Part shown: piece by piece, positions 2,296 to 20,626 of the stretch
How positions within the stretch are numbered: position 1 is the first letter of the stretch
Layout: the number at the start of each line of letters is the position of its first letter
NCBI GenBank assembly: GCA_963817895.1
Contig: CAWFQB010000012.1
Location: 1 to 64,000 of the forward strand
Origin: an uncultured Chthonomonadaceae bacterium
GTDB lineage: Bacteria; Armatimonadota; Chthonomonadetes; Chthonomonadales; Chthonomonadaceae
Direction of reading: 5' to 3'
DNA length: 64,000 nucleotides
Program-made: the position numbers and the translations under genes
The notes under the pieces: model-generated
Told to the model about the DNA's origin: nothing
The model's input: only the letters and a program-made list of their open reading frames with translations
Database searches by the model: none

Positions 2296-3586
2296 ATGAT
2301 AGATAGATATACGACGCGGAGATGCGTGACCTGTGGAGTCCGCAGCACAAGACGCAACGCTGGCTGGATGTGGAGATTGCGGTTTGTGACGGGCTGGAAC
2401 AGTTCGGGCAGATACCGGCGGGAACCACAGCAAAAATTCGCGCCGGAGCGACGTTCGACCTGGACGCGCATGGCGGAACTGGAAAAAGAGACCCGGCATG
2501 ACGTGATGGCGTTCGTGAAAAATGTGGCGGAAAATCTGGGCGAAGAGGGCCGGTACGTGCATTACGGCGTCACGTCCTATGACATTGTGGATACGGCTCT
2601 GGCATTGCTGTTGCGGGACGCGGCGGATCAGATCATTGCCCGCGCCGAACAATTGAACGAGGTGATACGCCAAAAGGCGCGGGAACATAAGAATACCGTG
2701 ATGATCGGGCGGACGCACGGCATCCACGCGGAACCCATTACGTTCGCGTTCAAACTGGCGACATGGCTGGACGAGATGAACCACAACATCGAGCGGCTGA
2801 AGCAGGCGCGGGATGCCGTAAGCGTGGGCAAGATTTCGGGCGCGGTGGGAACACACGCCAATATCGGACACGATGTAGAAAAGTATGTGTGCGGCAAATT
2901 AGGGCTTGGGCGTGGCGACCATTTCCACACAGATTATCGCCCGTGACCGCCACGCGCAGTTTATGGCGACGCTTGCCATTCTGGCCGCCAGTCTGGAACG
3001 TTTTTCAACCGAAATTCGCAATCTCGCCCGTACCGAAGTGCGCGAAGTGCAGGAGTATTTCGCGCAGGGACAAAAAGGCTCGTCCGCGATGCCGCACAAG
3101 CGCAATCCGTGGAACTCGGAAACGATTACGGGGCTGGCGCGAGTCGTCCGGGGCAATCTCATCCCGATGCTGGAAAGCATGGCGACGTGGCACGAGCGCG
3201 ACCTGACCAACAGCAGCGTGGAACGCATCATATTGCCGGACACGACGACGCTGGTAGACTGGATGCTATGGAAGTTCGCGGACATTCTGAAAGGCCTGAT
3301 TGTCTACCCGGAAAACATGAAGCGCAATCTGGACATGATGGGCGGCCTCGTATTCTCCGAACAGATCATGCTGGCATTGATACAAACCGGGCTGTCGCGC
3401 GAAGAAGCGTATGGCGTGGCGCAGCGCAACGCGGCCAAAGCGTGGTCCGGAGAAGATTTCCGAAGCGCGATAGAGTCCGACCCGATTGTAGCAGAGCGAT
3501 TAACGGCGCAGGATGTCGCCCACGCCTTCGACATGGAATACCATCTCAAAAATTTGCAGCATACGTATGAAGCGTTGGATATTTGA
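2296..3586 (+). CDS. purB: Adenylosuccinate lyase, frameshifted
   Basis: MIDRY, ETRHDVMAF, HYGVTSYDIVDT, GRTHGIHAEPITF, GKISGAVGT, signature GSSAMPHKRNP, HERDLTNSSVER. Confidence 0.96.
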
Positions 3587-3947: not shown

Positions 3948-7920
<3,973 letters not shown>

Positions 7921-7922
<2 letters not shown>

Positions 7923-8170
7923 GAATTTCCACCACAGAGACACAGAGACACAGAGGTTTCACAGAGATAAAGAAGATGAAAAGTCCCTCTCCTGGCGCGT
8001 TGCGCGGCAAGGAGAGGGGTTGGGGTGAGGTAAAAGGAGATAGGCATTGGAGGAGAATCAAACGCGAACTGAGAATCTATCGAATATGGGCAGAAGAAAA
8101 TTCTTAACCTCTTCTCTCCAGTCCCTCTGTGCAGCCTCTGTGTCTCTGTGTCTCTGTGGTGGAAATTCCT
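7921..8170. repeat. Family A element with a nested CCCTCTCC/GGAGAGGG hairpin element (7984-8034)
   Basis: Arms AGGAATTTCCACCACAGAG... and ...CTCTGTGGTGGAAATTCCT; the inner element recurs at 28156 and 48451. Confidence 0.93.
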
Positions 8171-9237: not shown

Positions 9238-9256
9238 AAACATTGGGATACAGAAA

Positions 9257-9466
9257 CTTTCACCACAGAGACACAGAGACACAGAGGTTTCACAGAGGGG
9301 TTGGAGAGAAGAGGTCAGAGGGACTTTCCTGTGTCAGTAAAGTCTTGCGCCTGTCGCAGAGAAACGTTGCTCGTTTCAGCAAAATCTCCTTTTCTCCTTT
9401 TCTCCTTTTCTCCTTGTCTTCTCTTCTCTGTGTAACCTCTGTGTCTCTGTGTCTCTGTGGTGAAAG
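9257..9466. repeat. Family A inverted-repeat element
   Basis: Same CACAGAGA arms; the right arm lies in the next gene's N-terminal coding region. Confidence 0.93.
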
Positions 9467-10097
9467 CTCTTCCTCCTCCGCGCAGGGCAAGCCCCCCGCC
9501 GTTGAGAAGATTACCGATAGCGTGTACCGGGTCGGCAAGGTAACGGTTGATTTGGGGGCGCGGACGGTAACATGCGCGGGCAAAATCAACATGGACGCGG
9601 GCGCGATTGAGTATCTGGCGGTTGCGCCAGGTGGCAAAACGCACGAAAGCCTCCTGCTTGTGGACACCCGGCCTTTGCATTTACAGGTGGGATTGCTGCT
9701 GCTTGGCCTTGAACCGAAGAACGTATTGAAATCGCAGGGGGATAAAACCACGCCGCTCGGCGCGCCCGTGCAATTGTGGATACGCTGGAAAGACGCGCAG
9801 GGCAGACCACAGGAAGCGCGGGCCGAAGAACTGGTTTCCGAACTGCCCTCCGGCAAGGTAATGCCCTCACACGATTGGGTATTCACCGGCTCACGGATTA
9901 TCGGGCAGGGGTTCGAGGCCGACCTGCAAAAGTCACTTGTAGCCGTGTGGCATGACCCCGCCGCCATTCTGGACAACCCGCTTCCCGGCGGCGCGAACAA
10001 CGCCTACATTGTCAATTCCAAACGCGCGCCCAAACGGGGTACGCCGATGGAGTTCGTTATCAAAGCGCCTGCCCTGCCGGAAAAACAGGCTAAATGA
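9345..10097 (+). CDS. YdjY-domain-like exported protein (start uncertain)
   Basis: IEYLAVAPGGKTHESLL, LQVGLLLLGL, WVFTGS; hydrophobic N-terminus; TTG at 9345 is in frame. Confidence 0.75.
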   Translation: MRLSQRNVARFSKISFSPFLLFSLSSLLCVTSVSLCLCGESSSSSAQGKPPAVEKITDSVYRVGKVTVDLGARTVTCAGKINMDAGAIEYLAVAPGGKTHESLLLVDTRPLHLQVGLLLLGLEPKNVLKSQGDKTTPLGAPVQLWIRWKDAQGRPQEARAEELVSELPSGKVMPSHDWVFTGSRIIGQGFEADLQKSLVAVWHDPAAILDNPLPGGANNAYIVNSKRAPKRGTPMEFVIKAPALPEKQAK

Positions 10098-10125: not shown

Positions 10126-11244
10126 ATGTCTCTTGCTGATAAAAAGTTGAACTGTCCTGAACCTATGAAACTCTCCTGCAACTCCGCCGAACTGTGGGCA
10201 GGTCTGTTTGCGTCGGATGCGGAGGAGCGTCAACAGGCGATAGCGGCTGTTGCGCGGGAAGCGGAGAAAGCCATCCCCTGTCTGATGCAGATTGTTCAGC
10301 GCCCGCTCGGTTACGCGCTCGATTGCTGGCCCGAATGGGAACAGATGCTTCCCGCAGGAGCGATCCTGACACGGTGTATGTTCGGGCGGAAGGCGGCGCT
10401 GGAAGCCATGATTTGCATCGGACGCCCCGCGATTGGCGAACTCACGCGCCTGTTGCACACTGCCGAGCCAAATCTGCGCGAGTATGCGGCGGATGCTTTA
10501 CGGAAAATGGACGCGCCGGAAGCGATTGACGCTCTAAGCGATTCTTTACAACAGGAACTCGTAAGTCACAGGCAAGCGCGGCGTAAATGGAATCGCAACC
10601 GCGCGATGGGCAGCATCGGCGTGGCATTAGCAGTCTTTTTTTTATCGCCGATTTACAGTGGCTATCCGCGTTATGAATTCTTCTATGCGCCTGTTTGTGG
10701 CTTGGTTGTCTGGTTGTTGTTGGGGTTTAAGGATCGGGGGGCAGGTTTGCGGCACACGGCTATTGCCGCCCTGACGGAAAACGGCGACAAGCGGCATATC
10801 GGGATATTGACAAACTGCCTGAATGACCCGAACCATGTTGTACGCCAATCTGTATCGGACGCGCTAACACAATTGCTGCCGCAAGTGCGTATAACGGATA
10901 AGGCCGCTATTTCACACACGGAGCGCATGGCCCTGCTGCGGACTGTGGATGGCGACAACCCCGATCTTGCCGTCGCGGTTCTGGCCGCAATGCGGCATAT
11001 TGGGAATGAGCAGATTCTGCGGCAGGTGGCGTATGTGATTGACAGTCCTGTCCACCATAACGCGGTGCGCGAAGCGGCCCACGAGTGCCTGCCGCATGTG
11101 AAACTGCGCGCGCGGGAAGCGCAGGAAGCGCAAGTTTTACTGCGTTGCGCGTCGAAGCAGAAGGAGGGGGAAACCTGTCTGCTGCGCCCATTGCGCGAAC
11201 AGCCCGCGCTTGACCATGAAGAACAATTGCTGTTGCCACGATAA
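10126..11244 (+). CDS. HEAT-repeat, 2-TM protein with LLR-triple tail (paralogue 1)
   Basis: HEAT units LREYAADALRKMDAPEAIDAL and LNDPNHVVRQSVSDAL; TM hairpin; tail LLRCA..LLRPL..EQLLLPR. Confidence 0.8.
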   Translation: MSLADKKLNCPEPMKLSCNSAELWAGLFASDAEERQQAIAAVAREAEKAIPCLMQIVQRPLGYALDCWPEWEQMLPAGAILTRCMFGRKAALEAMICIGRPAIGELTRLLHTAEPNLREYAADALRKMDAPEAIDALSDSLQQELVSHRQARRKWNRNRAMGSIGVALAVFFLSPIYSGYPRYEFFYAPVCGLVVWLLLGFKDRGAGLRHTAIAALTENGDKRHIGILTNCLNDPNHVVRQSVSDALTQLLPQVRITDKAAISHTERMALLRTVDGDNPDLAVAVLAAMRHIGNEQILRQVAYVIDSPVHHNAVREAAHECLPHVKLRAREAQEAQVLLRCASKQKEGETCLLRPLREQPALDHEEQLLLPR

Positions 11245-11265
11245 CGATAGAGAAAAGGCTTCCTG

Positions 11266-12417
11266 ATGAGTGACTTCAAAGAGACAAATAACATTAACAA
11301 AATTCGTCCCGGCTATTCGCGCCGACGGTTCCTGACGAATGTAGGCGCAGCCGCGTTGATTGGCGGAACTGCGCTGGAAGCGCAGGCCGCGCCCGATGCG
11401 GTTCTTGCCAATGCCCGCCTGTCGGTTGGCAGGGGATTGGACTACCTGCGCCACATACAGGAGAAGGACGGCTCGTGGAGCCACTATCCGGCGATTACAT
11501 CCCTCGCTTTGTGCGCGTTTCTGCGCAACGGCAGAAACGAAGTGAACGAACCCGCTGTCGCCAAAGGGGTCCAATTCCTGTTGCGCGAGGCCAAACCCAA
11601 CGGCGCGATTTTCGACAACCGCGATCCGGCCCGCGCCCTGCCCAACTACAACACCGCGCTCTCCCTGCTCACTCTGTCGCTGACAAAAAATCCGGCCTAC
11701 AAACCAATTATTCTAAAAGCGCAAAAGTACATGGAGCAGTCGCAGTTCGATGAGACCGAGGGGATAGAAGCGTCGAACCCCGTGTACGGTGGCATCGGCT
11801 ACGGCAACGATCCCGACGACCACCCCGACCTGTCAAACCTGTCTATGGCCCTGCAATCGTTGAAAGAATCCGGCGTCCCCTACAACGCGCCCGTGTTCCA
11901 GAAGGCCATCACGTTTTTGCAGCGCGTTCAGAACCGCCGCGTCAGCAACGATCAGGCATGGGCGAAATCCGGGCCGAACGATGGCGGTTTCGCCTATGAT
12001 ACAACCGGAGAAAGCAAGGCGACGGGTTCCGGCGACCATACCTCGATGGGAGCCATGACGTATGTGGGACTGGAAAGCTACATCTACTGCGGCGTATCCA
12101 AAGACGATCCCCGCGCCAAGGCCGCGTGGGACTGGATACGCGCCAATTACACCGTCAAAGAGCATCCGGGGCAGGGCGACGTATCGCTGTACTACTACTA
12201 TCACGCGATGGCGAAAACGCTCAATGTGTACGGCCTGAAGTCGTTCAAGGACGCCAAAGGCAACACCCACGAGTGGGCGCGCGACCTTGCGGGCGCATTA
12301 ATCGCCAGACAAAAACCCGATGGCGCGTGGTTCAACACCAATTCTCGCTACTGGGAAGACCAACCCGCCCTCGTCACCAGTTACACGCTGATCGCGCTGG
12401 CGTATTGTTTAAAATAA
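11266..12417 (+). CDS. Prenyltransferase/squalene oxidase repeat protein with Tat signal
   Basis: SRRRFL..AQA signal; QEKDGSW, YGGIGYG, PDLSN, NDGGFAY, LYYYYH, QKPDGAW. Confidence 0.9.
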   Translation: MSDFKETNNINKIRPGYSRRRFLTNVGAAALIGGTALEAQAAPDAVLANARLSVGRGLDYLRHIQEKDGSWSHYPAITSLALCAFLRNGRNEVNEPAVAKGVQFLLREAKPNGAIFDNRDPARALPNYNTALSLLTLSLTKNPAYKPIILKAQKYMEQSQFDETEGIEASNPVYGGIGYGNDPDDHPDLSNLSMALQSLKESGVPYNAPVFQKAITFLQRVQNRRVSNDQAWAKSGPNDGGFAYDTTGESKATGSGDHTSMGAMTYVGLESYIYCGVSKDDPRAKAAWDWIRANYTVKEHPGQGDVSLYYYYHAMAKTLNVYGLKSFKDAKGNTHEWARDLAGALIARQKPDGAWFNTNSRYWEDQPALVTSYTLIALAYCLK

Positions 12418-12447
12418 CTTTGAAATAATCCTGAAAGGTTCTTCTGA

Positions 12448-13512
12448 ATGACCGTTCCGACTATTGCGACCAACAACTCTGTTTCTCCCGGCGTAGCGCC
12501 CTCCGCTCCTGACGATATGGCGCGTTTGCAGAAATTGCGGGATGCGTTTGATTCCATGCGCCGCGAAATCGGGCAGGTGGTTATCGGGCAGGATGCGGTT
12601 GTGGAAGAATTGCTGATGGCCGTGTTCGCGCGGGGGCATTGTATCCTCGTCGGCGTTCCCGGACTGGCGAAAACCCTGCTTGTCAGCACGGTTTCGCGCG
12701 TTCTGAACCTGTCCTACAAGCGTATTCAGTTTACGCCCGACCTGATGCCCGCCGACATTACAGGCACGGAAATCATACAGGAAGACCAGGTGACGCGGGA
12801 GCGCAAGTTCGTGTTTTTGCGCGGGCCGCTGTTCGCGAATATGATTCTGGCGGACGAAATCAACCGAACCCCGCCCAAAACGCAGGCCGCGTTGCTGGAA
12901 GCCATGCAGGAGCATAAAATCACGGTTGGCGGACAGTCGCACAAACTGGCCGAGCCGTTCTTTGTCCTCGCCACGCAAAACCCCATCGAGCAGGAAGGCA
13001 CGTATCCTCTGCCGGAAGCGCAATTAGACCGCTTCATGTTTATGATTATCGTGGGCTACCCATCGGCGGAAGAGGAAGTGGCGATTATGAAGGCCACAAC
13101 GGGCGGCATGAACGCCGAACTCCGCGCCACGCTGACGGGTGAAGACATTATCGCTTTGCAGGACATTGTGCGGCGTATTCCCGTTGGGGATCATGTTTTC
13201 CGCTACGCCGCGCAGCTTGTGCGTCAAACACGCCCCAATGAACCCGAAGCGCCCGCGTTCATCAAGGACAACATCAGTTGGGGAGCCGGTCCGCGCGCCT
13301 CGCAGTATCTCGTGTTGGGAGCCAAAGCCCGCGCCGCGCTGTACGGACGCAACTACGCCACAACCGAAGACGTTGCCGCCGTCGCCCTGCCCGTCCTGCG
13401 CCACCGCATCGTGACCAACTTCAACGCGGAAGCGGAAGGTTTGACGACAGACAAAATCGTGCAGAAATTGATTGCCTCAACCCCGCGCCCAACCGAACCC
13501 ATCCGAAAGTAA
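12448..13512 (+). CDS. moxR: MoxR-family AAA+ ATPase
   Basis: [67 protein letters not shown]. Confidence 0.97.
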
Positions 13513-13549
13513 CCACGTAGGGCAGGAGCGCGGGACAACAGGTATCGTC

Positions 13550-14506
13550 ATGCAGCAACACCAACAAAGGCCGGAACGAGAAGCATATCAAGCCAATCGT
13601 TGCAACAAAATGGATGCAAACGGCTTGCCGCAAGGGGCGCAGGCCGCTTCCGCCTTTACGCCTGTGTCACTTGATACCATTCTGCGGAACATGAACAGTC
13701 GGAAAGCGAAGGAGCAGCATGAGGCTGTTCGAGCAGTCGGGTTGTTGATAACTTCCGCGCCCGATCAACTGCTGTTGCTTGCGAAAATGGAAGCCCAAAA
13801 CTATCAGCGTCATGCCGCCTCGGGCGCAATCATCAGCCTCGCAATCGTTGCGCTGGTGGGCATGGCATGCGTCCTGTTAAGTAAGAGCAACATCTGGGCA
13901 ATAGATAACGCTTTATACATTTTTGCGGGAACGTGCATCGCGCTGGCCTGCTGGTTAAGTTTGTATCTGCCGCGCCGGGCGCGTCGTAATATGATTGATG
14001 TGTATCATTATCTGGATGATCCGCGCTTTATCGGCCTTGCGCTCAACATGCTTGTACCGGATGGCATTACGGAGTCGCGCCAATCGCCAATGTACACCGG
14101 TTACGTTCAAGCGAGTATGGTAGGTGCGCTGACCAAAATGCTGAAGCGCGTGAATGTGAGTCATAAAACCCTGCTCACATGCGAACAGATGCAAATTTTA
14201 CTGTCCGTGCTACAGCATTCCCGAACGGACAGGGCATTAACACTGGCTATTCTCCGCGCCTTACAGCAAATCGGCGATGAGAGCGCTATTCCCATTGTGG
14301 AGCGCATAGCCCGCTCGACGTTCGACGTTCATTCCGAGGCCGAAGAGTGTCTGGAGTACCTGCGTGGTCAAGCAGATCAGAAACGTCAGGCGCAAACCCT
14401 GTTGCGGGCTTCCGACAGCGTGGTAAGTACCCGACCGGAACACATGCTGCGCCCCGCCAATCCCGAAACCGACGCCGCGCCGGAGCAACTGTTGCGCCCC
14501 TCATAA
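13550..14506 (+). CDS. HEAT-like, 2-TM protein with LLR-triple tail (paralogue 2)
   Basis: TM hairpin; ALQQIGDESAIPIVERI; tail LLRAS..MLRPA..PEQLLRPS. Confidence 0.8.
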   Translation: MQQHQQRPEREAYQANRCNKMDANGLPQGAQAASAFTPVSLDTILRNMNSRKAKEQHEAVRAVGLLITSAPDQLLLLAKMEAQNYQRHAASGAIISLAIVALVGMACVLLSKSNIWAIDNALYIFAGTCIALACWLSLYLPRRARRNMIDVYHYLDDPRFIGLALNMLVPDGITESRQSPMYTGYVQASMVGALTKMLKRVNVSHKTLLTCEQMQILLSVLQHSRTDRALTLAILRALQQIGDESAIPIVERIARSTFDVHSEAEECLEYLRGQADQKRQAQTLLRASDSVVSTRPEHMLRPANPETDAAPEQLLRPS

Positions 14507-14522
14507 GGTAGGTAAAACAACA

Positions 14523-14633
14523 CCGTAGGGACACAACTTGTTGTGTCCTCCTCCGGCAACGTTGTGTTCTGCGGCGTAGAGGCAGGCGCGGACACAACCG
14601 CGCCAATGCGGACACAACAAGTTGTGTCCCTAC
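14523..14633. repeat. GTAG-type REP doublet (REPIN-like)
   Basis: CGTAGGGACACAACTTGTTGTGTCC ... GGACACAACAAGTTGTGTCCCTACG. Confidence 0.88.
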
Positions 14634-14673
14634 GAACGTTTTTCAAAGTAGTCAAAGGGTCGTTAAGAGATAA

Positions 14674-15555
14674 ATGGCGGAAGTTGTTAGAAATAGCGCG
14701 GAAACAACGCTCAAGGGGCTGTACAGCCGAAACCCTGCGATTGCGGAAGCGGCCCGTCATCAGGCGGAGCGGCTGACTACAGAAGAGTTTTTGCGGCTGC
14801 TGCACTTGTTCGAGTCGGAATCGTCACGGACGCAGATAGGTAAGGGAACACGCGCCTTTGTCTTTCTGTTTTTGCTCTGTATGTGCGGAGCATCGGGATA
14901 CGCGACATGGATAGATCAACATTATTGGGGCATGGGGTTTTTCATGACGGCGTTCTGGACGGCGTTGGCGGTCAGTTGTTTCTTCTGGCGTGTTCGCTAT
15001 ACCAACGAGGACAGCGAACAAGTTGAAAGCTGTCTGCGGGGCGTACTGAAAACAATGCAATCGCCCGCCCTCGCGCAGGCGGCAGCGGTTTTGCTCGACA
15101 AACGCCAGCAGCAGGAGCTTGCCAACCACGTTTCGTATGGCAATATCGCGATTATCCATGCCGCATACGCGGCTTTGCTGCTCAACCTGCCAACGCTGCC
15201 AACGGCGCAGGGATGGAACCCGTCAGGCCGTCAGGCGTTGTATGATTTGTTGCAGGACGATACCTATGAACACAAACTCGCGTCGCATATTCTGGATGCC
15301 GCCGCTCGTTGGCGCGATGTGGATGCTCTGCCACAAGTAAGTAAGCTGGCGAAGCGCGAAGATCGTCCTATGCCCCTGCGCCGCCACGCGAACGAGGTAA
15401 TGACTCTTCTGCTGGCGGAACGGCAGAAGCGGCAGTTGGGCGACAGCTTGCTGCGGGCATCCGAGGCTCCGCAGGGGCAAAGCAGGCGGGAACTGCTGCG
15501 TCCCGCAACAGGCCATGCGGAAACGCCGCCCGAACAACTGTTGCGGCCCTCATAA
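14674..15555 (+). CDS. HEAT-like, 2-TM protein with LLR-triple tail (paralogue 3)
   Basis: TM hairpin; ILDAAARWRDVDALPQV; tail LLRAS..LLRPA..PEQLLRPS. Confidence 0.8.
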   Translation: MAEVVRNSAETTLKGLYSRNPAIAEAARHQAERLTTEEFLRLLHLFESESSRTQIGKGTRAFVFLFLLCMCGASGYATWIDQHYWGMGFFMTAFWTALAVSCFFWRVRYTNEDSEQVESCLRGVLKTMQSPALAQAAAVLLDKRQQQELANHVSYGNIAIIHAAYAALLLNLPTLPTAQGWNPSGRQALYDLLQDDTYEHKLASHILDAAARWRDVDALPQVSKLAKREDRPMPLRRHANEVMTLLLAERQKRQLGDSLLRASEAPQGQSRRELLRPATGHAETPPEQLLRPS

Positions 15556-15571
15556 GACAGGTAAGAACAAA

Positions 15572-16456
15572 ATGGCACAGGTCACCCAAAACAGCGCGGA
15601 AGCGATACTCGAAGGACTGTACAGCCAAAATCCTGCGGCTGTGGAAACCGTACGCCATCACGTAAAACATTTGTCTGCCGAGGAGTTGTTACATCTGCTG
15701 AGTTTGCGACACTCGGAAGAGGTACGTACACAGATGGGAAAGCGAACGCGAACCTTTGGCGTTGCGTTTTTTCTCTGTATAAGTGGATTAACCGGGAGCT
15801 TGATACGGGCAGATCAAAGTTTTTTGGCTCTTGCACTTTTAGCGACGCCATTATGGATGGTATTGGCGGTAGTTTTTTTCTTCTGGCGAAGTCGCTATAC
15901 CAAAGAAGATAGCGAACGAGTTGGGTACAGTATACGCTGGGTGCTGAGGGATACCCATTCATCAGCCCTTGCTCAAGTCGCTGCGTTGCAGCGCAACGAA
16001 CGCCAACAGTATGAACTCGTTAATCGAGCTTCGTATGGCGCTATTGGATTTCTGCATGAGGCACCTCAGATATTGCTACGCATCCTGCCTACACTGGAAA
16101 CGGCAAATGGATGGAATGCAAAGAGCCGCCACGCCTTGTTTGAATTGATCCTGGACTACTACGAAGAACCCAAACTTGTTTTCTGCATTCTGGATGCCGC
16201 CGCCCGCTGGCGCGATGTGGACGCCCTGCCGCAACTAAGTGAGTTGACGAGGAGAGAAAATTGTCCACAGCCCCTGCGCCGTCACGCGAACGAGGTCATG
16301 ACTCTGCTGATTGCCGAACGGCAGAAACGACAATTGGGCGAAGGATTGCTGCGGGCGTCCCAGCGTCCTCAAGGGCAAAGCAGGCAGGAACTGCTGCGTC
16401 CGGCTACCCGTCACGCGGAGACGCCGCCTGAACAACTGCTGCGCCCGCAAACCTGA
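15572..16456 (+). CDS. HEAT-like, 2-TM protein with LLR-triple tail (paralogue 4, tandem duplicate of 3)
   Basis: Collinear with paralogue 3; near-identical C-terminal ~85 aa. Confidence 0.82.
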   Translation: MAQVTQNSAEAILEGLYSQNPAAVETVRHHVKHLSAEELLHLLSLRHSEEVRTQMGKRTRTFGVAFFLCISGLTGSLIRADQSFLALALLATPLWMVLAVVFFFWRSRYTKEDSERVGYSIRWVLRDTHSSALAQVAALQRNERQQYELVNRASYGAIGFLHEAPQILLRILPTLETANGWNAKSRHALFELILDYYEEPKLVFCILDAAARWRDVDALPQLSELTRRENCPQPLRRHANEVMTLLIAERQKRQLGEGLLRASQRPQGQSRQELLRPATRHAETPPEQLLRPQT

Positions 16457-16486
16457 CAAACCGCTATTCGCATCGGGAGCGTCAAC

Positions 16487-17386
16487 ATGCAGGCTGAAAT
16501 CGTATCCCCTCAACTGGATAAGGTGGAATGTGAGCGGCACTTACGCGGGCTGAACAGCTATAAACGCGAAACCCGCGAAACCGCCCTGCGGCAGATAGCC
16601 GCGCTGACGCCGGAACATCTGCTGCAACTGATGCGGGAAGGGTCGCGTTTTTACAGAAAGCGCTACCGTCTGAGTTCCTGTGTCGAACGGGCTTTGGTGA
16701 TTTCGTGTTTTCCCATTGGCATGATACTGTATGCTCTCTCTGCCGATGGAGTAGTCTGGTTGGCGCTATTGATAGTGGCGTTCATCGCAATCGGCTGGCG
16801 TTTTCTGACCGTACCCTGGCGTATGTACCGCTCTCTCGTTGGCGTTCTGGAACACACCGAGGATTTGAAGCTGATTGGACCGATGATTACGATGTATGTT
16901 CGCCCGGAAGGGCTGAGATACAAGCTGGATGCGCTGGGAAATATGCTGTGCCGCCTGTTGCCGCAACTGCGTTTCGATCATGCCGGTCTGCTGACTGTCG
17001 AACAGAAGCAGGATATGCTTCGTCTGCTTCCTGTAAGTATTGGCTCTAAAGACGGGAGGTTAAACGTAAGCGCCTTAGACTTGAATATTGCCCTGCAAAC
17101 CTTGAAAGCATTGGAACAAATTGGGGATGAAAGCGCTATTCCCGCCGTGAAACGGCTAACATGGGATTCTTTCAATAATAACAAAACTGTACAGAAAGCC
17201 GCCGAGCAGTGTCTCAAACATTTGCGCTCACATCCCGGTCAGCATAAGGAGATGCAAACCCTGTTACGCGCATCCGCCGTCACAGAATCCGCCTCCGATA
17301 CTCTGCTGCGCCCTGCATCCGGCAACACCGACACCGCCCCTGAACAACTGCTGCGCCCGACAGCGCAAGGCAAAGTCGGAACCTGA
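16487..17386 (+). CDS. HEAT-like, 2-TM protein with LLR-triple tail (paralogue 5)
   Basis: TM hairpin; ALEQIGDESAIPAVKRL; tail LLRAS..LLRPA..PEQLLRPT. Confidence 0.8.
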   Translation: MQAEIVSPQLDKVECERHLRGLNSYKRETRETALRQIAALTPEHLLQLMREGSRFYRKRYRLSSCVERALVISCFPIGMILYALSADGVVWLALLIVAFIAIGWRFLTVPWRMYRSLVGVLEHTEDLKLIGPMITMYVRPEGLRYKLDALGNMLCRLLPQLRFDHAGLLTVEQKQDMLRLLPVSIGSKDGRLNVSALDLNIALQTLKALEQIGDESAIPAVKRLTWDSFNNNKTVQKAAEQCLKHLRSHPGQHKEMQTLLRASAVTESASDTLLRPASGNTDTAPEQLLRPTAQGKVGT

Positions 17387-17414: not shown

Positions 17415-18323
17415 ATGGAAACACAAACAAAACAACTGGCGGACCCGCAAACGCTGGCCCGCATCGCCAAACTGGAACTACGCGCCCGCGCCGTTGTGGA
17501 GGGCGTCATATCCGGTATGCACAAAAGCCCGCACCGTGGCAGCAGCGTGGAATTCGCGCAGCACCGCGATTATGTGCCGGGGGACGAAATACGGCATATT
17601 GACTGGAAAGTGTACGCCCGCTCGGACCGCTACCAGATCAAGCAGTACGAAGAGGAGACGAACCTCAAAGCCACGCTTGTCGTAGATACCAGTACCAGCA
17701 TGGATTACAAGGGCATCAATTCCGCCCTGTCCAAGCGCGAGTACGCCGCCATTGTCGCTGCCGCCATCGCGTCCCTGCTGATGCGGCAGCGCGACACGGT
17801 TGGCCTGACGACATTTGATGATAATATCCGAACGTTCATTCCCCCGGCAGGCACGAGCGCGCACATGAAACTGCTGTTGGAAATGCTGGAAAAGCGGGAC
17901 ACCGCGCCCAAAACCATGATCGGCAACACGTTTCACGACCTAGCCGAGCGCGTGAAACGTCGGGGAATGTTGGTTGTTCTCAGCGACCTGTTCACCGATC
18001 CTGACGAGATGTTGCGCGGCCTGCAGCACTTCCGGCACCGCAAGCATGAAGTGATTATCTTCCACGTCTTAGACCGGGATGAACTGACGTTTCCCTTCAA
18101 GGATTCCGCCGTGTTTCAGGGCATGGAGGGCGAAGAGCCGCTGATGGCTGAACCCAACGCCCTGCGCCGCGAGTACCTGAACGCTTTCGGCGCGTATGTC
18201 GAAAAACTGAAAAAAGGCTGTCGCGAACTCAATATGGACTACCAGCAGCTTGTCACCGATCAGCCCGTAGACACGTCCATCTCGCGCTATCTCTCGTCAC
18301 GTTCCAATCAAGGCAAACGATAA
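17415..18323 (+). CDS. DUF58 (vWA-like) protein, MoxR partner
   Basis: GMHKSPHRGSSVEFAQHRDYVPGDEIRHIDWK, KQYEEETN, VDTSTSM, VVLSDL. Confidence 0.95.
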   Translation: METQTKQLADPQTLARIAKLELRARAVVEGVISGMHKSPHRGSSVEFAQHRDYVPGDEIRHIDWKVYARSDRYQIKQYEEETNLKATLVVDTSTSMDYKGINSALSKREYAAIVAAAIASLLMRQRDTVGLTTFDDNIRTFIPPAGTSAHMKLLLEMLEKRDTAPKTMIGNTFHDLAERVKRRGMLVVLSDLFTDPDEMLRGLQHFRHRKHEVIIFHVLDRDELTFPFKDSAVFQGMEGEEPLMAEPNALRREYLNAFGAYVEKLKKGCRELNMDYQQLVTDQPVDTSISRYLSSRSNQGKR

Positions 18324-18334
18324 CCTTATTAGCT

Positions 18335-20510
18335 ATGCCACCCTTTCTAAACCCAATCTTTCTTTACGCCGTCGCGTTTGCGGGCGTGCCACTGCTTATT
18401 CACCTGATACGGCGGCGCAAACTCAAGGTCGTCCAGTGGGCAGCGATGGAGTTTTTGCGCCAGTCGCAGAAGAAGCAGCGGCGGCGGATGCGAATCGAAG
18501 AGCTGATTCTGCTCACGCTGCGGACGCTGATTGTGATACTCGCCTGTCTCGCGTTCGCGCGTCCTGTCACGCACACGCTGGGCGCAGCCCTTCTGTCACA
18601 GAATCAGCGCGTGTACGCCGTGCTTGTCGTGGACAATTCCTATAGCATGGGGCAACGGGGGCGGGACGGCAAAAGCAGTCAGGAGCGCGGCGCATACCTA
18701 TGCGTCGCAAATCCTGACCCGCATCCTCAAACCCGGCGACTCGGCCTCCCTCGTGCTGCTGTCCGACAAGCCGGAAGCGCTTATCAACTCGCCCAGTTTT
18801 GACCGCGATTCGATTTTGCGGCGTTTGCGGACGGTTGCGCTTGTGGATCGCCCGACCGATTATCTGGCAACCGCGCAGCTTGTCAACAAACTGCTGAAAG
18901 CGTCCAATGCGCCCGTGAAAGAGGTGTACTGGCTCAGTGACGATCAGGCGACCGCGTGGGCGACGAGCAAGCGCGATAGCGCGCGTCCCGTGTGGCAGGA
19001 GTTGGGCCGGCAGGCGCGGCTGACGTGGGTATCCGTTGGCGCGCCGAACGGGGAGCGGGATAACCTTGTCGTGGAAGCCCCCACTCTGAGCCGGGAACTG
19101 GTCACACCACAACTGCCCGTTCGTATCGAAGCGAAAATAGTGAATTACGGAGCAAAACCCCGCAACGATGTTCTGGTCAACCTGAAAATAGATGGCAAGC
19201 AATCCGACAGCAAGCGCGTGTCCATTGCGCCGGGCGGAAACGTCCTCGTCCGGTTCCCGCAAACGCCCTTTCTGACAACCGGAACGCGCGTCGGGCGGAT
19301 TGAACTGGCGGACGCTTCGCATGTAGACGGACTGGAGCGCGACAACGGCGCGGACTTTGTTGTCCGCTGCCGGGACAGAATCAGAGTTCTGGTACAGGAC
19401 ATGCACCCGTCCGGCGACCCGACCAAAAGCGACAGTTTTTACCTGCTGAACGCGATGGCCCCCAACGGGGCGCAGGAGAGTCTGGCCGCGAAACTGCGCG
19501 AAGGGCCGGGATTGGGCGGCGTGACCCTGCGCGACTACGACGTGGTGATTCTGACGGGCGTAAGCGGCCTGTCTACGGGAGATAAACGCGCCCTGACGGA
19601 GTACGTGAAAGCGGGCGGCGGCCTGATGCTGTTTCCGGGTAATGGCACGGAAGCGAGCCGCGTCAATGCCGATCTTGGCGGTGAGGGGGGCTTGCTGCCC
19701 GCTCGCCTGACAGCGACGAAAACCCTGAGCGACAGCAACGCGATGACGCTCAACCCCGGTTCCGTTACGCATCCCGCTCTGACCATGTTCAAGGACACGT
19801 CGAGCCTGAATGTGGCGAGCGTGCGGTTTACGCGGTATTTCGGTCTGGAACCCGCGCTGGAAGCCAACGATCCAAACGCCGTACAGGTGATGATGCGCTT
19901 CAGCAACGGCGACCCCGCCTTTGTGGAGCGGCATGTGGAACTGGGGCGCGTGATCCTCGCGGCAAGCAGCGCGGGCGCGTCGTGGAACCAGTTGCCGCTC
20001 AAGCCGAGCTACGTTCCCTTAGTGTATCAACTGCTGTTTTATCTGGGACAGGGCGCGGCCTCGCACCGCAATCTCGCGCAGGAAGAACCGCTGTTTCTCG
20101 CCCTGCCGCTTTCCGATGCCAACAAGCCCGTGCGCGTGACCACGCCGGACGGACGGACAACCACGCAGAACAGCGCGTTGGATGCGCGGGGCGTCACATT
20201 CCGCTACGGCGCAACGCAGCAGTCGGGCGTGTACAAAATCGCCGTGCAGGGCAGCCCAACGCAGGACGCTTTTGCCGTCAGCCTGCCCACTGCCGAGTCC
20301 GACCTGACCGCAACCGATCCCGCGCAGGCCGCGACACAGGCCGGTGTTGTCGGCAACCGTTTGAGCGTGGCGAATACGGCGCAGCAATTGCAAACGTCGG
20401 TATCTCGCGCCCGCTACGGCGCAGAAATCTGGCGAACCCTGCTGATGACGGTAATCGGCCTGCTGTTCCTCGAAATCGTCCTCGCGCAACAGTTCGGACG
20501 AAGAGGATAG
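18335..20510 (+). CDS. BatA N-terminal/vWA domain membrane protein, frameshift near 18685
   Basis: FLNP..PLLIHL..WAAMEFL..LAFARP; MIDAS-like VDNSYSM; glutamine-amidotransferase-like segment YDVVILTG..YVKAGGGLMLFPG; C-terminal TM. Confidence 0.9.
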
Positions 20511-20516
20511 GAGGAA

Positions 20517-20626
20517 TTTCACCACCAAGACGCCAAGAAGAACTGAATAAAGAGGAAAGAACATAGTTGGGTACTCTTTTTCTCCTCTTCGTATTTCTTG
20601 GTGTGCTTGGCGTCTTGGTGGTGAAA
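20517..20626. repeat. Inverted-repeat element, family B (CACCAAGA/CGCCAAG arms)
   Basis: TTTCACCACCAAGACGCCAAG ... CTTGGCGTCTTGGTGGTGAAA; solo arm at 28284-28316. Confidence 0.88.

Follow-up and report, generated by a model that had tools for sequence, protein, structure and literature searches.

Five paralogous genes in the window (the whole stretch of 64,000 nucleotides that was analysed) encode proteins with a tail of three leucine/arginine motifs, and this tail is probably a docking tag for one oligomeric or polymeric receptor. The tail is portable, occurring on at least six unrelated non-enzymatic bodies.

Five tail genes and their host operon

An earlier note on this DNA had described five co-oriented paralogues with triple-motif tails, four of them between moxR and the DUF58 gene; the genes and their placement were confirmed (Table 1), and all fifteen motifs and their spacers agreed letter for letter with those listed before. 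The shared body plan held in part: two hydrophobic helices were present in all five proteins, whereas the Pfam HEAT_2 model scored above cut-off only in gene 1, and weakly in genes 2 and 5. The bodies proved as divergent as had been claimed when genes 2–5 were compared with gene 1 (20–28% identity), except that genes 3 and 4 form a closer pair (55%). The core of the REP-like element between genes 2 and 3 is present in 281 copies in the genome, and an Rfam scan of the window returned no matches.

Table 1 Tail genes, tails and host-operon genes in the window.
Feature	Position	Strand	Description
Tail gene 1	10126..11244	+	372 aa; extra HEAT repeats at N-terminus, 2-TM hairpin, HEAT domain, degenerate triple tail; slot A subfamily
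Tail of gene 1	11137..11241	+	LLRCA 338, LLRPL 352, LLLPR 368 (residues)
Prenyltransferase/squalene-hopene-cyclase-like toroid protein	11266..12417	+	PF13243; host-operon core; adjoins moxR, conserved in family
MoxR AAA+ ATPase	12448..13512	+	PF07726, PF17863; host-operon core
Tail gene 2	13550..14506	+	318 aa; main HEAT/2-TM class; slot B
Tail of gene 2	14399..14503	+	LLRAS, MLRPA, LLRPS
REP-like palindromic element	14524..14634	.	25-nt perfect inverted arms
Tail gene 3	14674..15555	+	293 aa; divergent HEAT-like/2-TM body; tandem duplicate of gene 4
Tail of gene 3	15448..15552	+	LLRAS, LLRPA, LLRPS
Tail gene 4	15572..16456	+	294 aa; 55% identity to gene 3
Tail of gene 4	16346..16450	+	LLRAS, LLRPA, LLRPQ
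Tail gene 5	16487..17386	+	299 aa; main HEAT/2-TM class; helical fold to ~residue 255, then unstructured tail (model)
Tail of gene 5	17261..17362	+	LLRAS, LLRPA, LLRPT
DUF58/vWA protein	17415..18323	+	PF01882; host-operon core
BatA/vWA membrane protein	18335..20510	+	Frameshift splits gene in this assembly; single ORF in relatives

Distribution of the tail family

A tail-profile search of this genome and its relatives, as the earlier note had proposed, was performed on six-frame ORFs (~66,000 in this genome; E<0.01) and returned 88 ORFs in 57 clusters here, with 0 reversed-ORF decoys; two such motifs 12–18 residues apart near the end were found in 1 of ~7,240 other called genes. The tail marks ~1% of the proteome of this soil-type bacterium, for the most part on membrane proteins. 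Across the 41 genomes compared (G000, this genome; G001 and higher, its relatives), it was found in 35 of 40 relatives and was confined to two families of the order Chthonomonadales; the motif marks 4,377 protein clusters within this order, and the family has an annotated member in the cultured species Chthonomonas calidirosea. All 84 family-level homologues carry the tail, a count that is biased, since the search profile included the tail. Tail number follows genome size across genomes (rho 0.84).

The view that the tail belongs to no named family was borne out: no match above cut-off was obtained in Pfam for 75 tails (best E 0.018, at most 4 members per family) or in NCBIfam (best E 0.014), and none among PDB sequences (best E 0.17). 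PADLOC gave 5 generic HEAT matches only on 85 proteins, and PHROGs none on 10. The top match in the protein atlas was an uncharacterised Armatimonadota cluster (0.94), with nothing over 0.80 for the small 2-TM class, and neither tail family nor motif was found in open-access titles and abstract openings. Tail genes have a co-oriented gene upstream in 75 of 86 cases vs 73% of other genes (p 0.0016). Their 125 nearest neighbours share no partner family, low-copy genomes show no conserved neighbours beyond common families, and no common upstream DNA motif was detected except the ribosome-binding region of the small 2-TM class.

Architecture and conservation of the tail

The tail consensus consists of three copies of [DE]-x-L-[LV]-R-[AP], placed 13–15 and then 15 residues apart on flexible Pro/Ala/Glu-rich linkers; among 76 strong matches, 68 have three motifs, 4 have four and 4 have two. 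Spacing is 13–15 residues in 69/72 and 14–16 in 65/72, and about half to two thirds of the second and third motifs have the acidic residue two positions before the leucines. In 59/72 the C-terminus lies no more than 12 residues beyond the last motif. The remaining 13 of the 72 carry 13–52 further residues (a HEAT pair after some tails) and some tails are internal, in tandem fusions. This placement bears on the reading of the tail as a degron, which would shorten half-life via an AAA+ protease or the proteasome while the bodies do unrelated jobs. Such a degron is unlikely: its usual position, unfolded state and hydrophobic-basic character would suit one, as would the FtsH-, ClpX-, Clp-, Lon- and ARC-like ATPases of the genome (labelled by reading of matches) and the Pup-type ligases of 40/41 genomes, but these extensions and internal copies argue against it, the same proteases are also present in tail-less genomes where tested, and known degrons need less than three copies at fixed spacing.

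Comparison of eight G000–G001 orthologue pairs showed motifs to be 90% identical (pN 0.09, pS 0.52), a value inflated by setting motif positions on the G000 protein, compared with 45% for bodies and 39% for linkers. Leu and Arg codons within the motifs vary as in the genome at large. These substitution patterns indicate that the tail is conserved at the protein level and not at the DNA level, the latter being ruled out by free synonymous change. Body dN/dS is ~0.2, which gives no support for positive selection on the bodies.

Bodies, topology and structure model

The 85 bodies compared fell into groups of 48, 17, 3, 2, 2 and 2, with 11 singletons, and include HEAT solenoids with an inserted 2-TM hairpin, small 2-TM, soluble HEAT, Spo0M-like and DUF1499-like types. 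Pfam on 81 tail proteins identified HEAT, Spo0M and weak DUF1499 domains; the lone enzyme body is a dehydrogenase fusion whose G001 counterpart is a separate gene. The small 2-TM class lies in an island with ankyrin and orphan genes. On 54 hairpins, K/R residues average 3.2 before TM1, 1.0 in the 10-residue loop and 2.6 after TM2, so that both protein ends are predicted to lie inside, with the tail facing the cytoplasm.

AlphaFold2 prediction of gene 5 from an 85-row alignment gave a mean pLDDT of 83.7 and a pTM of 0.77, with tail blocks at 53–60 (single-sequence prediction, at pLDDT 48, was unusable). The main-class body appears as stacked helical hairpins, as in the HEAT-solenoid class; its fold matches are generic solenoids (best Z 9.6), none at E≤0.001. 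In the model the tail is unfolded and neither folds nor docks on its own body. That the tail is structural, folding on the body or self-assembling, or is kept by a DNA-level constraint, for instance as a recombination site, is highly improbable: tail DNA is 60–80% alike between tandem copies, as that reading would allow, but synonymous change is free in the motifs and the tail is also found on bodies without a HEAT domain. The earlier suggestion of a multivalent docking, sorting or degradation tag thus stands as regards an unnamed, protein-level, multivalent, C-terminal motif outside the HEAT solenoid; its tie to the MoxR machine does not.

Relation to the MoxR operon

The earlier note had taken the tail to dock on the MoxR/DUF58/BatA machine, with the tail proteins as its clients or adaptors. 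Tail genes do occupy the MoxR operon in 11 of 21 family loci, and gene 1 clusters with the slot-A genes of five relatives (quick tree with long branches; SH-aLRT 97); the slot-A genes of the six genomes form one clade, which indicates that residence in this operon is old. Gene 2 shares 41% identity with its positional orthologue in G001, and DUF58 lies directly 3' of moxR in 7/21 family loci. Against such a partnership, 83 of the 88 tail ORFs lie outside the MoxR operon and only 5 inside, tail genes come within 5 kb of only one of the five moxR loci of the genome, and the slots of the operon are filled by other small genes in relatives. Tails were found in 0/12 sister-family MoxR operons and 0/66 loci from other lineages, and the selA-selD operon holds tail genes about as often (10/21).

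MoxR and tail also occur apart: MoxR (E≤1e-100) was not found in four tail-bearing genomes (G013, G014, G029 and G036, 96–100% complete, with 33, 9, 4 and 9 tails, respectively), and the tail-less G030, G031 and G037 do have it, a comparison across the 41 genomes that concerns this MoxR, beside which other MoxR paralogues may remain. Consistent co-occurrence of tail and MoxR was thus not observed, and what the earlier note had named as speaking against its proposal, a scattered family unlinked to MoxR loci, is largely what the 57 clusters and the equally occupied selA-selD operon present. MoxR as a dedicated partner was rejected on this distribution and the selA-selD control, and docking on the MoxR/DUF58/BatA machine is very unlikely. 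The tail genes are dispensable lodgers of the operon, which does not seem to be their partner. Contrary to earlier hope, the tail family offers no test of which proteins are MoxR clients.

Effector-associated domains (EADs) of MoxR-vWA ternary systems, in which a second copy on a core component provides homotypic coupling (PMC7159879), resemble the tail as small portable modules on variable proteins with proposed coupling to a core machine in a MoxR context. They differ from it in that the tail is predicted to be unfolded, its bodies are not enzymatic effectors and the operon core genes are without a tail. None of the 88 tail matches is a MoxR, vWA or DUF58 protein, and the fusion to enzymatic or signalling effectors typical of EADs was not seen, 80 of 81 proteins having no enzyme domain. 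The host operon has MoxR, DUF58/vWA and BatA/vWA genes, like the MoxR-proper operons with DUF58/vWA and BatA (PMC3495828, for the MoxR-vWA-transglutaminase type), and departs from them in its lodger tail genes, which the operon does not contain in the sister family or in other phyla.

Candidate receptors

For the docking tag, the likeliest receptor class would be an ATP-driven chaperone or unfoldase, to which we give rather less than an even chance; within this class, Hsp70/DnaJ on one side, and the N-domains of ClpX, ClpC, Lon, ARC or FtsH on the other, are each a minor possibility of about equal weight. Neither neighbouring genes nor presence patterns indicate a receptor.

A special case of the docking-tag explanation is that every motif offers the Hsp70 peptide groove a Leu-rich site, three of them letting several DnaK load near the membrane; a lidless DnaK paralogue (rpoZ-dnaK2-dnaJ-prmA) would then be the specialised reader. 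Overall we regard this as rather unlikely, and the lidless DnaK as a weak candidate. Sixteen family genomes conserve the paralogue (483–503 aa), a lidded orthologue occupies the same locus in several sister-family genomes, and none was found in the three tail-less genomes named above; two tail genes lie 3' of prmA in G000, and family genomes with the lidless DnaK carry 9–91 tails vs 5–17 in those without, although genome size and kinship confound this difference (three independent pairs only, p ~0.5). However, the lidless DnaK was not found in nine tail-bearing genomes, including the single-contig G005, and in relatives 0/13 dnaK2 loci include a tail gene. Compared with canonical DnaK, it has a more variable peptide-binding domain, without a conserved acidic pocket for the invariant Arg, and an acidic residue near the motif leucines is not what DnaK prefers. 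Distribution and gene linkage do not support a dedicated Hsp70 partner of the HscA/IscU type: in contrast to that pair, the specialised Hsp70 here is neither found wherever the tail is nor linked to the tail genes.

Binding to consecutive subunits of a membrane filament or lattice (MreB, PspA/ESCRT-III-like or other), which would sort proteins to a place or to vesicles, is quite unlikely. Fourteen to 15 extended residues span ~45–50 angstrom, close to filament repeats, and PspA is present in 37/41 genomes, but it occurs in tail-less genomes too. Bactofilin (1/41 genomes) and DivIVA (not found in the three genomes richest in tails) were rejected as receptors by absence. Both Pup ligase and PspA are too widespread to discriminate.

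It is extremely unlikely that the tail serves delivered effectors as a signal for export or loading. Secretion typically uses portable C-terminal signals on diverse proteins, the small 2-TM class has its island of ankyrin and orphan genes, and a contractile-injection tube gene is present in G000 and G029; however, no enzymatic toxin body was found in 81 scanned proteins, a search of tail-bearing G005 did not find the tube gene, and neither VipB nor WXG100 was found in any of 5 genomes. T6SS, WXG100 and the contractile tube were rejected as partners, fitting in none of these 5 genomes. Mimicry of the RNA polymerase beta-flap (anti-sigma) was also rejected, given only a weak PDB likeness (E 0.32), no LLR in the genome's own flap tip and motifs without the following hydrophobic pair.

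Likeness to known systems

In adaptors of AAA+ proteases of the SspB/RcdA type, a folded domain for recognition is joined by a flexible linker to a C-terminal docking peptide. The tail proteins resemble them in having a non-enzymatic body and a flexible tail with a short Leu/Arg docking motif, but here the motif comes in three spaced copies, the bodies are membrane-anchored and a genome has up to ~90 paralogues, with no sequence match. Portable C-terminal sorting signals are known as PEP-CTERM, the T9SS CTD and encapsulin cargo peptides; like these, the tail is a single C-terminal module shared by many unrelated proteins within one lineage, and unlike them it is without a membrane anchor or fold, lies on the predicted cytoplasmic side and has three repeats.

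Implications

As a docking tag, the tail would project into the cytoplasm from a wide range of non-enzymatic bodies, and its three motifs would bind three equivalent receptor sites by avidity. The fast-evolving bodies would recognise different targets at or in the membrane, and the proteins may form an expandable adaptor set, or tagged clients, of a single machine. Their genes would spread by duplication, lodge inside housekeeping operons, be inherited for a while and then be lost, the MoxR operon being one such lodging. Docking by short linear motifs is well documented in eukaryotes; to our knowledge such motifs are seldom recorded in bacteria, usually as one motif on one or few proteins. Tentatively, Chthonomonadales may possess a eukaryote-like adaptor repertoire, with tens of fast-diverging membrane/HEAT recognition modules in each genome, wired by one three-site motif to one machine for remodelling or degradation; its logic might, with the same reserve, be like that of ubiquitin-ligase substrate adaptors, possibly with no described bacterial counterpart at this scale. 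Since a member is annotated in cultured C. calidirosea, a receptor test is feasible. If there is one receptor, naming this hub would give function to thousands of hypothetical proteins and would show a bacterial route to an expandable adaptor set.

Tail genes of the window and their host operon

Re-examination of the ORFs and motifs of the five tail genes (10126, 13550, 14674, 15572 and 16487) reproduced the gene order and 15 of 15 motifs of the earlier note. Their host operon encodes a large DUF4175 membrane protein, two prenyltransferase-like toroid proteins, MoxR, DUF58 and BatA/vWA. Several genes of the source genome (G000) have reading-frame breaks but are intact in relatives, so some of the broken tail-family members found elsewhere could stem from sequencing errors; the DUF4175 stop, batA frameshift and purB split are probably assembly errors. 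Patterns related to the four palindromic elements of the window occur 60–280 times in the genome.

Features of the window, the source genome and relatives
Feature	Position	Observation
purB	window 2296-3586	also split
DUF4175 gene	window 3948-7922	in-frame stop; single ORF in relatives
Operon-core gene, no assigned function	window 9279-10097	53–86% identical in family relatives; no Pfam or PHROG match
batA	window 18335-20510	frameshift; single ORF in relatives
Palindromic elements, intergenic or gene-overlapping	window 7921-8170, 9252-9466, 14524-14634, 20517-20626	inverted arms of 21–46 nt
Multi-pass membrane gene ahead of slot A, relatives	L068:5778-6746; L071, L073, L074, L076, L077, L079	no tblastn match in G000
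Second DnaK (lidless)	G000:C14:717393-718842 (L220)	rpoZ-dnaK2-dnaJ-prmA
Atypical Hsp70 genes	G000:C1:1520394-1522802, C9:56262-58166	neighbours presumably GrpE-like or coiled-coil, and dynamin-like
Contractile-injection-type tube genes (PF06841)	G000:C1:285185-294398	
Island of ten small-class tail ORFs (L027)	G000:C4:36664-55243	interspersed with ankyrin and orphan genes
Spo0M-like protein with tail	L037:4007-4981	Pfam assignment
Spo0M-like protein with tail	L108:5015-6229	taken by us as Spo0M-like
Gln-rich starts on a few other membrane proteins	C14:715770, C4:44346	similar to extensions beyond tails

A portable triple motif on unrelated bodies

A strict motif pattern recovered 41 tail ORFs in the source genome, and the iterated profile search suggested earlier, run on this genome and its relatives, found tails in two families, with 88 ORFs at E<0.01 (84 at E<1e-5) in G000, making up 57 clusters, and 0 matches among reversed ORFs used as decoys. 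The motif follows the consensus [DE]-x-L-[LV]-R-[AP], with Arg invariant in motifs 1 and 2 of 75 aligned tails; three motifs were present in 68 of 76 strong matches, spaced by 13–15 (69/72) and 14–16 (65/72) and joined by linkers of E, A, P, T, Q and S. Tail codons vary freely at synonymous sites, and eight orthologue pairs between G000 and its relative G001 were 90% identical in motifs, 45% in bodies and 39% in linkers. Relative to the G002 orthologues, dN was 0.25 for gene 10126 and 0.03 for MoxR, with dN/dS near 0.2.

The 85 bodies compared fell into groups of 48 (HEAT with a two-TM hairpin), 17 (small two-TM proteins lacking HEAT), 3, 2, 2 and 2, plus 11 singletons, the tail alone being common to all. 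Pfam recognized HEAT repeats, Spo0M in one body and, weakly, DUF1499 in another; the sole enzyme is a dehydrogenase fusion, encoded by two separate genes in G001. The tail, a spaced triple motif conserved at the protein level, is portable, and the bodies that carry it are unrelated and non-enzymatic. Across 54 hairpins the distribution of charges places both ends inside, and by the positive-inside rule the tail is predicted to face the cytoplasm. For gene 16487, AlphaFold2 (85 rows) predicted a folded body (blocks mostly 81–97), resembling only generic helical solenoids, and a tail devoid of secondary structure (53–60).

Several loci (L007, L011, L025, L030, L036, L039) carry a Gln/Glu-rich extension beyond the tail, ending in a Q-x-Q-like stretch. 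Soluble HEAT members form adjacent gene pairs in several genomes (L046, L056, L021; also L308 of G023), and the Spo0M-like protein, found with a tail in both families, recalls arrestin adaptors with their motif-bearing tails. Within the L027 island the start and tail modules are conserved and the middles variable, some being non-membrane, as if the two modules captured arbitrary inserts.

Distribution and novelty

Tails were present in 24/24 genomes of the family, 11/14 of the sister family and 0/2 of a third, at 2 to 91 matches per genome; in a phylum sample they occurred in 26 of 251 genomes, all within those two families. The profile matches 4,377 clusters at 50% identity, a count covering any taxon and possibly reaching beyond the phylum. 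Chthonomonas calidirosea is the named source of one member. PMC4959169 describes this organism as cultured, its genes being dispersed and many of its proteins hypothetical; the retrieved parts of that paper hold no passage on the family.

No match to the tail turned up in Pfam, in NCBIfam or among PDB sequences, bearing out the view that no named family covers it, and literature searches, made without supplements, returned nothing on it; the feature is real and apparently undescribed. The available portions of PMC3495828 regard MoxR-vWA operons as membrane-proximal unfolding systems and do not mention genes of this type.

Independence from the operon's MoxR

The earlier note took the tail proteins as clients or adaptors of the MoxR/DUF58/BatA machine, on which the tail would then dock. 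A tail gene occupies slot A (that of gene 10126) or slot B of the operon in 11/21 family loci (ORFs of at least 50 aa; several contigs short), and slot-A genes from six genomes form one clade (SH-aLRT 97, quick tree); however, moxR directly adjoins DUF58 in 7/21 family loci, and in relatives the slots also hold other small genes, which we take to be PIN pairs, XisH/XisI-like genes, an insertion sequence and a methyltransferase. Tail genes were seen in 0/12 sister-family MoxR operons and 0/66 loci from other lineages. Checked for co-occurrence, each was present without the other: the operon MoxR was sought without success in four near-complete genomes that bear tails, and was present in three tail-less ones. 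The decisive control came from other operons: 10/21 family relatives have a tail gene or its body no more than 1.5 kb away from selA, and 4/17 have one equally close to miaB.

Distances between the five moxR loci and the closest tail cluster are 0, 12.9, 18.8, 237 and 261 kb, and a random genome site falls within 20 kb of a cluster 28.5% of the time. Among informative loci, tail positions were shared with G000 at 9/28 in G001, 4/28 in G023 and 2/25 in G013 (background 3.3%; best 30 loci of 71, 40 and 33, respectively); shared positions at selA, miaB and other loci indicate inheritance in place at many unrelated operons. The client proposal is not supported and stays an improbable rival, and the tail is independent of the operon's MoxR.

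Tail genes have unrelated housekeeping genes as nearest neighbours (n = 125), four ankyrin and four transposase/integrase genes among them. A co-oriented gene precedes 75/86 tail genes (tandem copies counted), and 2/10 patterns of palindromic repeats show enrichment next to these genes (8/86 and 5/86), which is no more than a hint of the route by which they arrive.

Search for a receptor

The lidless DnaK (483–503 aa) is conserved in 16 family genomes (also L233-L246, L254); the sister-family orthologue at the same place keeps its helical lid. It was not found in nine tail-bearing genomes, and 13 dnaK2 loci of relatives contained no tail gene. Larger genomes have more tails (rho 0.84). For DnaK2 versus tails, the three independent pairs gave p of about 0.5, a comparison omitting G006, G007, G010, G019, G025 and G027 (no DnaK match, or low completeness and no paralogue). 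The lidless DnaK is a weak candidate. PspA and Pup-type ligases are too widespread to discriminate. Bactofilin, found in 1 of 41 genomes, and DivIVA, sought without success in the three genomes richest in tails, are excluded as receptors; the secretion systems looked for in five genomes do not fit the tail proteins. A likeness of the motif to the polymerase flap tip failed against the genome's own sequence.

Proposed mechanism

The tail belongs to none of the known systems tested. In its working it would resemble docking-tailed protease adaptors and portable C-terminal signals. The tail differs from EADs, as described in the retrieved parts of PMC7159879, in having no copy on any core component. 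We favour, with some reserve, a reading in which the tail would use avidity to dock on a single oligomeric receptor in the cytoplasm and the bodies would provide variable recognition at the membrane; its rivals are a plain degron, attachment to a filament, docking on MoxR, export and a structural role. By analogy, our best guess, tentatively held, is that the receptor could be an ATP-driven chaperone or unfoldase, as the tail's Leu/Arg core, its lack of order and the adaptor-like architecture of the proteins would suggest.

The feature is far larger than the five genes first noticed, and is not tied to MoxR. Chthonomonadales might conceivably, though this is rather unlikely, possess a eukaryote-like adaptor repertoire, in which many modules would be wired by one three-site motif to a single machine.
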